Shown here: positions 1 through 4,933 of the stretch, one piece after another
How positions within the stretch are numbered: position 1 is the stretch's first letter
Layout of the letters: each line of letters starts with the position of its first letter
NCBI GenBank assembly: GCA_965199175.1
Contig: OZ240684.1
Location: 1,058,337-1,122,336, forward strand
Direction: 5' to 3'
Length of the DNA stretch: 64,000 bases
DNA from: Alphaproteobacteria bacterium
Lineage (GTDB): Bacteria; Pseudomonadota; Alphaproteobacteria; G963923945
The notes under the pieces: generated by a model
Told to the model about the DNA's origin: nothing
Seen by the model: only the letters and a program-made list of their open reading frames with translations
Databases searched by the model: none
Translations under genes and position numbers: made by a program

Positions 1-497
1 AACAGCCCAGTCTGTCAGACAAAGAATCCTTCCTTGATCTGAGACCCCGCTTACCGGCTGGACCAATACCGGCAGAACAGCAGAAGACAAGAATCACCAG
101 GCCAGAACCACATCCCGACAAGACACTCGACAATCCTGAGAACATCTTTCTTGCTGAACAGGAGAGCCGGGCCCGACTGCAGCAAGCATTGGCACAAATC
201 CAAAATCCCACCAATGATCTCAACATGATTAGGCAAAACGAAACCGGACAAAACAAGCCGCTCAGTCAACCGGAACAAAAACCAGTATCTGATCCTCAGC
301 GTGCTGAATTCTTCAGACGACAAAGGGAGATACAGCAAAAACGCAAACACATGCTCGACCCCAACCAACCATCTCTGCTCAATCTGGCACCTCCGGGTTC
401 TGAACTGGCCCGGATTCTCGAGGAGAGAAAACAGAAACTGGCAAAGGAAAAACGGAAATCGCTGCGCGCCAACGCCAACAATACTGCTGTTGCCTGA
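1..497 (+). CDS. 5'-truncated (window edge) duplicate of the C-terminal Q/P/K-rich region of the 3494-4585 protein
   Basis: Positions 1-840 are ~98% identical to 4087-4930. The reading frame is open from the window edge to a TGA at 495-497 (ORF 189-497 lies within it). Confidence 0.5.
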   Translation, partial: QPSLSDKESFLDLRPRLPAGPIPAEQQKTRITRPEPHPDKTLDNPENIFLAEQESRARLQQALAQIQNPTNDLNMIRQNETGQNKPLSQPEQKPVSDPQRAEFFRRQREIQQKRKHMLDPNQPSLLNLAPPGSELARILEERKQKLAKEKRKSLRANANNTAVA

Positions 498-810
498 ACC
501 GGTCTCTTGCTGAGAATATACGATGCCGGTGCAGGCCACCAGCATCGTATGAATCTGGCAACACCGGGAAATATGCAAAGCCAGGCCAGGCCACCAGCAT
601 CATATGAATCTGGCAACACCGGGAAAGACAACTCCTTGCCAACAACCAGCCCCTTTTTTCTGTCAATTCCTTGCTCTGGTTCTGGTGGCCGTACCGGTAC
701 AGGGACTGACCAACCCTGGCCCGTCACAGGCACCATGGGCTGGATGTTTTTATTCTTTTATTCCTTTAGTTTTCTCTGGCTTCAACGTCACAAACCCTCA
801 ACATCCGGGT

Positions 811-865
811 TGGTTGCGGGGGCAGGATTTGAACCAGCACCCTCCTGGTTATGAGGCTCAAGGTA
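811..865 (-). pseudogene. tRNA-Met-like 3'-half remnant (att-like partial tRNA copy)
   Basis: The reverse complement reads ...CTCATAACC...GGTTCAAATCCTGCCCCCGCAACCA, matching the anticodon loop, T-arm and acceptor 3' strand of the intact tRNA-fMet at 4857-4933. The 5' half is unrelated, so no cloverleaf forms. Confidence 0.5.
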
Positions 866-1062
866 TCAAGCTGAGGTTCTAAAACCCGGCCAAGCGGAAT
901 TTTCTGTATTTTCTGTTTCGGCACATCCTGAAGAGGTGAATAAAACCTTGACGTTGCGGAGGGATACAAACATATACTATTTGTAATTTTCTGGCCTGGC
1001 ATCTTCATTGACGACGGATATTCATCAACTCTGTCAAAGTCATAAAATCCTCGAAGATTACA

Positions 1063-3351: not shown

Positions 3352-3493
3352 TCTCCGGGTTCAGAAACCCGGGACTCATGATCTGAATATGCACCAACAC
3401 CATAGGGAGGGAATCAATCAACAAAACAAACAAAATATCAATAACAGCCCCAACCATCACCCGAAAACCAGAATTACAAGGAAAGGAAATATC

Positions 3494-4585
3494 ATGGCTG
3501 AAATACGAATCGAGGGACGCGAAGTCAAAATGGGGAAAAAAGATGGAAATAATATATTCGACGCCGGACATTTATATCTGGTTTATGTCGATGACGATGG
3601 CAAGGAAACTATTATCGGCGGGGGACCAAGTGATAATCCATTGACCAATGTAAACGCCACTCTTGATGTCATAATAGATTTTCCAATCCAGCTTTCACAA
3701 GAGAAATGGGACGGGAAAGACATAGAGGTCAGACGTCAAAAACGAGGAAGCATTACTCTTGATTTGGGCGACCGAGACCCAGAAGAAGTTTGGCAAGAAA
3801 TGCTGGTTGCTGCGAAAAAAATTGGTGATGCGAAAATTGATTACGATATACGTGGCCCCAATAGCAATACTCTGATTGCCGCCGTGCTCAATCATGTTGG
3901 AATTACGAACCTCAAGCTGCTGCCCCCAGTGGAAAGAGTCGATGGAAGCTGGGTTAATGCCCCCTATCCCGGTACTCGTCACGAAACCGTTACAGAGCTA
4001 ATGGAAAAAGCCGAGTTATCGCCCCCCCAGGGCCAGGACAACCAGCAAAACCCGGAAACCGGTAGAGATCAGCAGTTCCCAAAAAGAAAACAGCCCAGTC
4101 TATCAGACAAAGAATCCTTCCTTGATCTGAGACCCCGCTTACCGGCTGGACCAATACCGGCAGAACAGCAGAAGACAAGAATCACCAGGCCAGAACCACA
4201 TCCCGACAAGACACTCGACAATCCTGAGAACATCTTTCTTGCTGAACAGGAGAGCCGGGCCCGACTGCAGCAAGCATTGGCACAAATCCAAAATCCCACC
4301 AATGATCTCAACATGATTAGGCAAAACGAAACCGGACAAAACAAGCCGCTCAGTCAACCGGAACAAAAACCAGTATCTGATCCTCAGCGTGCTGAATTCT
4401 TCAGACGACAAAGGGAGATACAGCAAAAACGCAAACACATGCTCGACCCCAACCAGCCATCTCTGCTCAATCTGGCACCTCCGGGTTCTGAACTGGCCCG
4501 GATTCTTGAGGAGAGAAAACAGAAACTGGCAAAGGAAAAACGGAAATCGCTGCGCGCCAACACCAACAATACTGCTGTTGCCTGA
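3494..4585 (+). CDS. Hypothetical protein with ~190-aa N-terminal globular domain and Q/P/K-rich low-complexity C-terminus
   Basis: ATG at 3494 follows AGGAAAGGAAAT (Shine-Dalgarno-like); the ORF track gives 3389-4585. The C-terminal 165 aa are duplicated at window positions 1-497. Confidence 0.55.
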   Translation: MAEIRIEGREVKMGKKDGNNIFDAGHLYLVYVDDDGKETIIGGGPSDNPLTNVNATLDVIIDFPIQLSQEKWDGKDIEVRRQKRGSITLDLGDRDPEEVWQEMLVAAKKIGDAKIDYDIRGPNSNTLIAAVLNHVGITNLKLLPPVERVDGSWVNAPYPGTRHETVTELMEKAELSPPQGQDNQQNPETGRDQQFPKRKQPSLSDKESFLDLRPRLPAGPIPAEQQKTRITRPEPHPDKTLDNPENIFLAEQESRARLQQALAQIQNPTNDLNMIRQNETGQNKPLSQPEQKPVSDPQRAEFFRRQREIQQKRKHMLDPNQPSLLNLAPPGSELARILEERKQKLAKEKRKSLRANTNNTAVA

Positions 4586-4856
4586 ACCGGCCTCTTGCTG
4601 AGAACATACGATGCCGGTCGCTCGCACCGGCATCGTATAGATCGGCAACCCCCGGGAAAGACAACTCCTTGCCAACAACCAGCCCTTTTTTCTGTCAATT
4701 CCTTGCTCTGGTTCTGGTGGCCGTACCGGTACAGGGACTGACCAACCCCGGCGTCACAGGCATCATGGGTTGGACGTTCTTACTGTCTTACTGTCTTATT
4801 CTTTTATTCTCTTAGTTTTCTCTGGCTTCAACGTCACAAACCCTCAACGTCCGGAT

Positions 4857-4933
4857 TGGTTGCGGGGGCAGGATTTGAACCTGCGACCTTCAGGTTATGA
4901 GCCTGACGAGCTACCGGGCTGCTCCACCCCGCG
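4857..4933 (-). tRNA. tRNA-fMet (CAT), initiator type
   Basis: The reverse complement CGCGGGGTGGAGCAGCCCGGTAGCTCGTCAGGCTCATAACCTGAAGGTCGCAGGTTCAAATCCTGCCCCCGCAACCA (77 nt) is near-identical to canonical bacterial initiator tRNA. It has the C1-A72 mismatch and three G-C pairs in the anticodon stem. Confidence 0.9.

Follow-up and report, generated by a model that had tools for sequence, protein, structure and literature searches.

The described systems closest to the locus reported here are genomic islands integrated at tRNA genes (Islander-type islands), tandem multigene families under concerted evolution, and tandem arrays of polymorphic toxin and immunity genes. Fragments of tRNA genes usually arise from the integration of mobile elements (PMC9897764). 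The locus occupies the beginning of a stretch of 64,000 nucleotides (the window) from an Alphaproteobacteria bacterium (contig OZ240684.1 of assembly GCA_965199175.1, positions 1,058,337 to 1,122,336, forward strand), and it consists of two genes, here called A and B, a spacer and an initiator tRNA gene, tRNA-fMet, a partial copy of which precedes gene A. It is probably the distal end of a vertically inherited chromosomal tandem array of two-gene units (A, B and spacer) beside tRNA-fMet, and the partial tRNA copy was probably clipped from the intact gene by a duplication.

Like tRNA-integrated islands, the window shows a block of genes of unknown function that is bracketed by a complete tRNA gene and a direct repeat of its 3' part and that lies on the 3' side of the tRNA. 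Integrases reportedly fall into sublocation classes within tRNA genes, as Williams is said to have described in 2002. The block differs from such islands, however, in that its unit is without an integrase, the DNA outside the tRNA fragment repeats the interior of the block, and a sister genome carries the array at this tRNA gene as well, without any fragment. In addition, the ends of the unit vary and its GC content is not deviant (0.41-0.53, judged to lie inside the range of the neighbouring DNA, 0.44-0.53).

With tandem families under concerted evolution the locus shares the head-to-tail arrangement of units, which is seen in the sister genome, and a mosaic of identities with sharp boundaries; the homogenised parts of A and B are closer within a genome, and the selected parts group across species. 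Unlike in such families, the homogenised block runs from the 3' half of a gene across an intergenic spacer into a tRNA gene, and the A and B gene families are themselves undescribed. The resemblance to polymorphic toxin-immunity arrays, such as those of contact-dependent inhibition (CDI), Rhs and the type VI secretion system (T6SS), lies in the tandem pairing of a putative enzyme gene with a partner gene, in constant and variable regions, in fast divergence and in recombination between constant parts. However, the polarity of B is reversed (its N-terminus is variable and its C-terminus constant) and all copies have one fold instead of an assortment of toxin folds, the partner A is located upstream, is very large (~730 aa) and is exported, and neither a secretion-system gene nor a known trafficking domain was found.

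Organization of the locus and its direct repeat

The locus is composed of the following features (window coordinates, with the strand where one applies):

1..497, plus strand: B tail of the upstream paralog P0003 (repeat copy 1; last 164 codons and stop, translation of 3-497)
498..810: spacer copy 1, from the B stop to the tRNA fragment (hairpin at ~517-551, insertion at 537-591)
811..858, minus strand: partial tRNA-fMet, ~nt 30-77 (anticodon stem through CCA end), non-functional (contains an exact 25-mer)
859..1158, plus strand: joint and leader 5' of gene A, unique within the window
1159..3351, plus strand: gene A (P0016), an exported repeat protein of ~730 aa (the public protein record starts at 1063)
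3494..4585, plus strand: gene B (P0001), 363 aa, an N-domain followed by a disordered or helical tail
4089..4856: repeat copy 2, consisting of the B tail (4089-4585) and spacer copy 2 (hairpin at 4605-4639)
4857..4933, minus strand: intact initiator tRNA-Met(CAT) (ARAGORN; Rfam tRNA, 64.9 bits)

For gene A, the start at 1159 was preferred to that at 1063, as it has the better Shine-Dalgarno sequence and is in common with the paralog P0017; the protein carries a signal peptide of the Sec type and an alpha/beta module repeated 2.5 times. The N-domain of B comprises residues 1 to ~175 (window 3494-4018), and the C-terminal tail, which is homogenised among paralogs, begins at ~residue 188 (window ~4055-4585). 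Protein searches identified three paralogs each of A and B on the source contig (2,069,867 bp), the paralogs of P0001 being P0002 and P0003. The gene cut by the window start matches the C-terminus of P0003 at 164/164 residues, and the upstream unit therefore holds a different paralog and is not a second read of the same gene. These results bear out the expectation of an earlier reading of the window, made from the sequence only, that a tandem array continues upstream with a further unit.

The window contains one full unit and the tail of a second, and we infer that the three units of the source contig are contiguous in the upstream direction. The order of elements in the window is B, spacer, tRNA 3' part, A leader, A, B, spacer and complete tRNA, which is exactly the order that a tandem duplication with its distal breakpoint inside the convergent tRNA gene would produce. 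Positions 1-858 pair with 4089-4904 as a direct repeat with a spacing of 4088 nt (gapped alignment, scored by segment). As the repeat extends to the left edge of the window, the limits given here are those of its part inside the window. The identity of copy 1 to copy 2 depends on the segment:

1-497, last 164 codons of a gene B paralog: 99.2%
498-530, immediately 3' of the B stop: 93.9%
hairpin-loop region, holding a 55-nt insertion: 67%
628-721, spacer: 98.9%
722-810, spacer: 91%
811-835, tRNA nt 53-77: 100%
836-858, tRNA nt 30-52: 73.9%

Past position 858 of copy 1 there is no similarity between the copies. The sequence-only reading had described a direct repeat of ~98% identity between 1-840 and 4087-4930; the long repeat is real, but its limits are 1-858 and 4089-4904 and its identity ranges from 67 to 100% by segment. 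It does include the last ~500 nt of the gene at 3494-4585, as had been noticed. A duplication is also present in copy 1, although what had been taken for a 45-bp tandem duplication at 540-630 is really a 55-nt insertion at 537-591, composed of a ~36-nt duplicate of 592-627 and ~19 nt of other sequence. Copy 2 in turn has 16 additional nt within a TCTTACTG repeat. Strong hairpins are located 3' of both B stops (517-551 and 4605-4639), between the convergent B and tRNA genes, with folding energies of -24 to -31 kcal/mol (-24.4 kcal/mol for that at ~517-551); their stem is the same in both repeat copies and their loop differs, and they may act as a bidirectional terminator. The 840-bp repeat is the visible part of a larger homogenised block of B tail, spacer and tRNA fragment, which probably takes in the A leader and the 5' end of A as well.

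An expanded or chimeric repeat in a long-read metagenome-assembled genome (MAG) would be another source of such copies: the source appears to be a MAG on a single 2.07-Mb contig, repeats are often misassembled, and in a third relative (described below) low-coverage contigs place the same unit in two contexts. Such an artefact is nevertheless highly improbable, given that 6 substitutions in the first 530 nt, indels of 55 and 16 nt and a divergent hairpin loop distinguish the copies, that the N-domains attached to them are not the same (47% identity between P0003 and P0001), and that an independently assembled sister genome shows the same architecture with five units.

The intact initiator tRNA that had been recognised at 4857-4933 on the minus strand was called by both ARAGORN and Rfam. 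Its sequence contains a C1xA72 mismatch, which is typical of initiator tRNAs, and its 3' part (4857-4904) forms the end of repeat copy 2. The 25-mer TGGTTGCGGGGGCAGGATTTGAACC, the 3' end of the tRNA, occurs exactly at 811-835 and at 4857-4881 (chance expectation 0), and the fragment as a whole is 88% identical to the intact tRNA over 51 nt; at 811-858, neither ARAGORN nor Rfam called a tRNA, even at E<=1. The upstream tRNA 3' half of the sequence-only reading is therefore present, with its exact 25-mer, but ends at 858 instead of 865.

The preferred mechanism has new units formed through segmental tandem duplication or unequal crossing-over, and in the source lineage the distal breakpoint of one duplication would have fallen at ~nt 30 of the convergent tRNA-fMet, the internal joint hence bearing the 3' part of the tRNA. 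Later gene conversion among units would then maintain near-identity over the B tail, the spacer and the leader 5' of A, and the B N-domain and parts of A would remain divergent, probably under diversifying selection. The drop in identity toward the joint (99%, 91%, 74%, none) agrees with conversion tracts of which few extend to the end of the duplicated block.

Alternatively, the A-B units could be integrase-less satellite islands, carrying an attP site with the 3' part of tRNA-fMet and inserted serially by a recombinase encoded elsewhere, with 811-835 as the crossover core and 836-858 as an imperfect attP arm. We regard this as unlikely, even though it would fit the partial and complete tRNA copies in direct orientation ~4 kb apart, the perfect 25 nt followed by a 74% block, and a fragment that is the typical target segment of integrases, integration being the usual source of such fragments (PMC9897764). 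No recombinase was found among A, B and 20 further ORFs of the window by Pfam, or among 8 by PHROGs, in agreement with the sequence-only reading, which saw no integrase in the window, and the 4-kb unit leaves no room for one. Moreover, the flank outside the tRNA fragment (1-810) is not unrelated host DNA but repeats 4089-4856, the interior of the unit. Further evidence on this alternative comes from the related genomes.

The array in related genomes

The relatives of A (P0016) comprise, besides the 2 paralogs on the source contig, 5 on the contig of a sister genome and 1 in a third metagenomic sample, and those of B outside the source genome are likewise 5 on the sister contig (2,099,932 bp) and 1 in the third metagenome. 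The sister (OZ000551.1, a 2.10-Mb contig) is a MAG recorded as Alphaproteobacteria bacterium. It has 5 contiguous A-B units of ~3.7 kb each, and 313 nt past the last B stop ARAGORN called a tRNA-Met(CAT) on the minus strand (L004 11522-11598), which is identical to the window tRNA at 77/77 positions and located on the same strand. To the right of this tRNA are asd, a hexapeptide-repeat protein gene, phaC, ompA, an aminotransferase gene and the homoserine dehydrogenase gene hom, and the series then continues with tRNA-Cys, tRNA-Asn and a methyltransferase gene. The window has the same gene order at 25.3-36.7 kb, with most products at 81-86% amino-acid identity and OmpA at 61%. The shared gene order and the identical tRNA indicate that the arrangement of array plus tRNA-fMet is orthologous in both genomes. 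An empty tRNA-fMet site, which the sequence-only reading had suggested looking for in close relatives, was not what the one informative relative showed, as the sister carries five units at the syntenic tRNA.

No tRNA fragment was found at any joint of the sister array, nor at its left end. At the joints J1 and J4, the sequence 3' of the last B continues to 137 nt beyond the stop and is followed by ~22 nt and then by the sequence upstream of the first A from 229 nt; these joints are the signature of plain tandem duplication, without an att-like core. The right boundary of the unit also varies, being placed 137 nt past the B stop in the sister, 312 nt past it in the third relative and 319 nt past it, inside the tRNA, in the window. 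All of these observations argue against satellite islands, as the sister joints are plain end-to-end fusions and the ends of the unit vary from genome to genome.

The third relative (ENA sample ERZ25067590, with its contigs covered 2-3x) has one A-B unit of 4,246 bp in two contexts at 99.98% identity (L001 7276-11521 and L002 2213-6457). In the first context, the unit follows an ortholog of the penicillin-amidase gene that forms the left flank of the sister array (74% amino-acid identity), and in the second it precedes phaC and the hexapeptide-repeat gene, which are right-flank genes of the sister, in inverted order. A penicillin-amidase gene is therefore predicted to the left of the array in the source genome. 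The boundaries of the unit are sharp, no terminal repeats, target duplication or tRNA fragment were found at them, and in one of the copies a frameshift splits A. The two contexts could result from an array split by rearrangement or from a chimera of the low-coverage assembly. For the satellite islands, the identical 4.25-kb unit in two contexts and the position of the array at the 3' side of the tRNA in two genomes are favourable, whereas the lack of terminal repeats and of a target duplication at the shared unit is not.

Several points weigh against the array having been shaped by duplication. The upstream units and the left end of the array are beyond the window, and their contiguity, like the absence there of an integrase or a further att-like fragment, is a deduction. 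The fragment begins in the anticodon stem and continues to the 3' end of the tRNA, where 25 nt match perfectly; this is exactly the part that integrases duplicate, and a random breakpoint landing in this part would be a coincidence. Both genomes have the array 3' of the tRNA, where islands sit, and the two contexts in the third relative could indicate mobility of the unit. Duplication nevertheless remains the preferred explanation, and the claim that the tRNA half is the integration scar of an island could not be upheld, considering the lack of a recombinase in the unit, the flank formed by the interior of the previous unit, the sister joints without a fragment, the variable unit ends and the paralog types that predate the split of the two species (see below). 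The locus is a counter-example to the reading of each partial tRNA copy as an integration scar, and it is the comparison with the sister genome that separates the two.

Concerted evolution and age of the array

The three B paralogs of the source genome are 100% identical from ~residue 188 to the end, and identity falls sharply to 10-70% in the N-domain. The three A paralogs are mosaic, with blocks of 95-100% identity alternating with blocks of 30-60%; for instance, the first 110 residues of P0016 match those of P0018 at 97-100%, and the 32-codon A leader (codons 1-32 of the long frame, 1063-1158) is 100% identical in P0018. Between genomes the pattern is different. The N-domain of P0001 is 59-60% identical to those of P0005 and P0006 from another genome, that of P0002 is 62% identical to P0004 and that of P0003 is 53% identical to P0008, and the identities of the source-genome N-domains to their own paralogs (47-56%) are lower than the best cross-genome match of each (53-62%). 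These differences are modest but consistent, and the motifs in the variable loops of B (~residues 41-80 and 137-160) agree. In contrast to the N-domains, the B tails reach 94-98% identity inside one genome and ~30% from one genome to another. Residues 288-345 and 673-762 of A follow the same pattern.

Since the N-domains are closest across genomes, at least three unit types must predate the split of the two species. The tails and spacers appear to have been homogenised separately in each genome since the split, by concerted evolution through gene conversion, and selection would keep the B N-domains distinct. Both the common N-domain types, which imply that the units are not recent additions, and the patchy homogenisation inside A, which shows gene conversion to be at work anyway, are further arguments against satellite islands. 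The feature is thus probably best described as a tandem paralog array under concerted evolution, made up of undescribed gene families, with the partial tRNA copy as a by-product. N-domain types that are found across species, together with tails that are homogenised per genome, make it a clean small case of selection versus concerted evolution acting on the two halves of a gene.

In the sister, the B tails contain in-frame tandem repeats of 87-93 nt with the motif NTPPLI(N/D)IMPNGRPTPPPVAQER, the copy number of which varies between paralogs. The repeats are located as follows:

L003 6938-7331: in-frame B-tail repeats, sister
L003 10748-10967: in-frame B-tail repeats, sister
L003 18087-18387: in-frame B-tail repeats, sister

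The B tail of the third relative has in-frame tandem repeats of 135 nt (L001 10750-11095), and the B tails of the window are without the in-frame tandem repeats found in the tails of these relatives.

A and B are 47-62% identical between the genomes and have diverged far faster than their syntenic neighbours, most of which are 81-86% identical. This difference, the alternation of high- and low-identity blocks in A, the sharp boundary between the variable and constant parts of B, the signal peptide of A and the small genome (2.07 Mb) could also be explained by a contingency or antigenic-variation locus of a host-associated bacterium, in which segmental conversion is itself the function and generates mosaic variants of A and B. 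We consider this rather improbable, as every copy seems to be a full-length gene preceded by an upstream region of its own, and there is no sign of silent cassettes that feed one expression site.

The A and B protein families and their possible functions

Neither A nor B has a match in Pfam, NCBIfam or PHROGs, and the description of the two cargo genes as members of no known family, given from the sequence only, is thereby corroborated. A phage or satellite origin of the unit was considered and dropped, as there were no PHROG matches. No relatives of A were found in JGI metagenome contigs, IMG/VR or PLSDB, and the profile of the B N-domain retrieved nothing from IMG/VR; the sole exception among plasmid, viral and JGI records, for A and B together, is one distant RTX protein on a plasmid. 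The viral and plasmid records thus hold almost no relatives, which is a further point against satellite islands.

The B N-domain is widespread, with 277 clusters (50% identity) at E<=1e-3 among 1.84 billion representatives, and its relatives include proteins from Roseibium, Acidimangrovimonas, Hyphomicrobiaceae, Reyranella and Rhodospirillaceae. It begins within the first 10 residues in 131/144 proteins, and RTX repeats, VWA or cadherin-like domains often come after it. Fusions of the domain to the RTX repeats of type I secretion substrates occur in many other Alphaproteobacteria. At residue 1, the domain starts with a conserved M-x-x-I-x-I-E, and across 105 members the positions E7, H26, E38, W100, Y117 and N123-S124-N125 are essentially invariant. 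The nucleophile position 124 is occupied by Ser in 103 of these 105 members and by Cys in 1, and His26 is invariant, so the conserved residues do not form a Cys-His pair. Two uncharacterised protein families are hereby brought to notice, one of which, the B N-domain, is mostly found at residue 1 of RTX-type proteins and has an invariant His...Tyr...Asn-Ser-Asn signature.

In the AlphaFold model of B, the core of the domain is confident and the tail is predicted to be disordered or helical. Foldseek found nothing significant for B in the PDB, the profile of the N-domain had no PDB sequence match, and its best Pfam match, DUF3750 (E 0.12), was below threshold. Serine-for-cysteine papain-like families have been described, DUF3750 among them (PMC10318531). 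With the permuted NlpC/P60 hydrolases, which comprise TseH (6v98), PPPDE/DeSI (2wp7), LRAT/PLAAT, YiiX and the serine-based DUF3750, B shares an invariant His on an early strand and a nucleophile position at the N-terminus of a later helix. It differs from them by a Ser in place of the catalytic Cys, by the lack of a significant Pfam, PDB or Foldseek match and by a domain that starts at residue 1. The motif Y-x(5)-N-S-N also recalls NCN, which we take to be a motif of PPPDE proteins. On the basis of the model and the conserved residues, the B N-domain is probably, with moderate confidence, a permuted papain-like serine/histidine fold (NlpC/P60, PPPDE or TseH-like), and B might, with low confidence, be a hydrolase or an acyltransferase-like effector.

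Unlike RTX proteins secreted by type I systems, B of the window is without nonapeptide repeats (PF00353), which several distant relatives have: they were absent from P0001 and P0005 and were identified in 6 of 9 distant relatives sampled and also at L009 and L010. A database listing of PF26745 for P0012 was not reproduced by the Pfam scan. By analogy with the C-terminal signal of the RTX relatives, the constant C-terminal tail of B may, with low confidence, be recognised by an export route, which would account for the variable N-terminus and the constant C-terminus.

For gene A, no convincing fold match was obtained. Since an exported partner adjoins a fast-evolving enzyme gene, A is possibly, as a low-confidence guess, an immunity-like or adaptor-like partner of B. 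The toxin-immunity interpretation of the pair rests on the adjacency of the genes, the signal peptide of A and their common rapid divergence. A more speculative and rather doubtful extension is that the array constitutes an undescribed polymorphic effector system of reverse polarity, in which a variable N-terminal enzyme of the serine/histidine papain-like kind would be joined to a constant, genome-specific C-terminal tail for export or targeting, in line with type I-like secretion by a C-terminal signal, and accompanied by a co-diversifying exported partner, and the repertoire would be shuffled and maintained by gene conversion over the block of constant tail, spacer and leader.

Other features of the window

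On the 5' side of the tRNA, a block of ~20 kb (~5072-25220) lies between tRNA-fMet and asd in the window and is absent in the sister, where the tRNA-asd spacer is 640 nt. It contains genes for a histidine kinase (5193-6776), a sigma-54 activator (7856-9298) and the small and large subunits of a [NiFe] hydrogenase (9830-12437), and in addition genes for a maturation protease, a NifU/Rieske protein, an NHL protein, HypF, HypD, a HypE-like protein, a nickel transporter and a HypB-like protein. This hydrogenase block may either have been inserted in the source genome or lost in the sister. At ~6773-7800, 3' of the histidine kinase gene, ~48 codons of an OmpR-type response regulator (MKILVVKDD...) are followed by short fragment-like ORFs, which are probably pseudogene remains; in the sister, the histidine-kinase ortholog is followed by an intact regulator of 222 aa. 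The sister ortholog (L012) adjoins a type II CRISPR-Cas system (Cas9, Cas1 and Cas2), with no tRNA close by, and this locus is therefore uninformative on the question of an empty tRNA-fMet site. Beyond the CRISPR-Cas genes, L012 (1957-7513 and 14965-21512 for these features together) also encodes toxin-antitoxin proteins and, with a TniB-like ATPase, a transposase of the Mu type.

Within the asd gene (25299-26390), at its 3' end, ARAGORN reported a 90-nt 'tRNA-His (anticodon ATG)' at 26297-26386, a call that can almost certainly be dismissed as false. An ORF of 481 aa (26538-27983), located between asd and the hexapeptide-repeat gene, has no Pfam match and no counterpart at the syntenic locus of the sister. 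Farther downstream, a phage structural module on the plus strand (37999-55478) is located directly beside a tRNA-Gln gene (37999-38072, minus strand). No integrase was seen in this module, and a GHMP kinase gene follows at 56042. The module comprises genes for the small and large terminase subunits, a portal protein, a minor head protein, a tail tube or minor tail protein, a tape measure protein, a tail fibre and a J-like tail protein, and may represent a prophage remnant or a cluster resembling gene-transfer agents.

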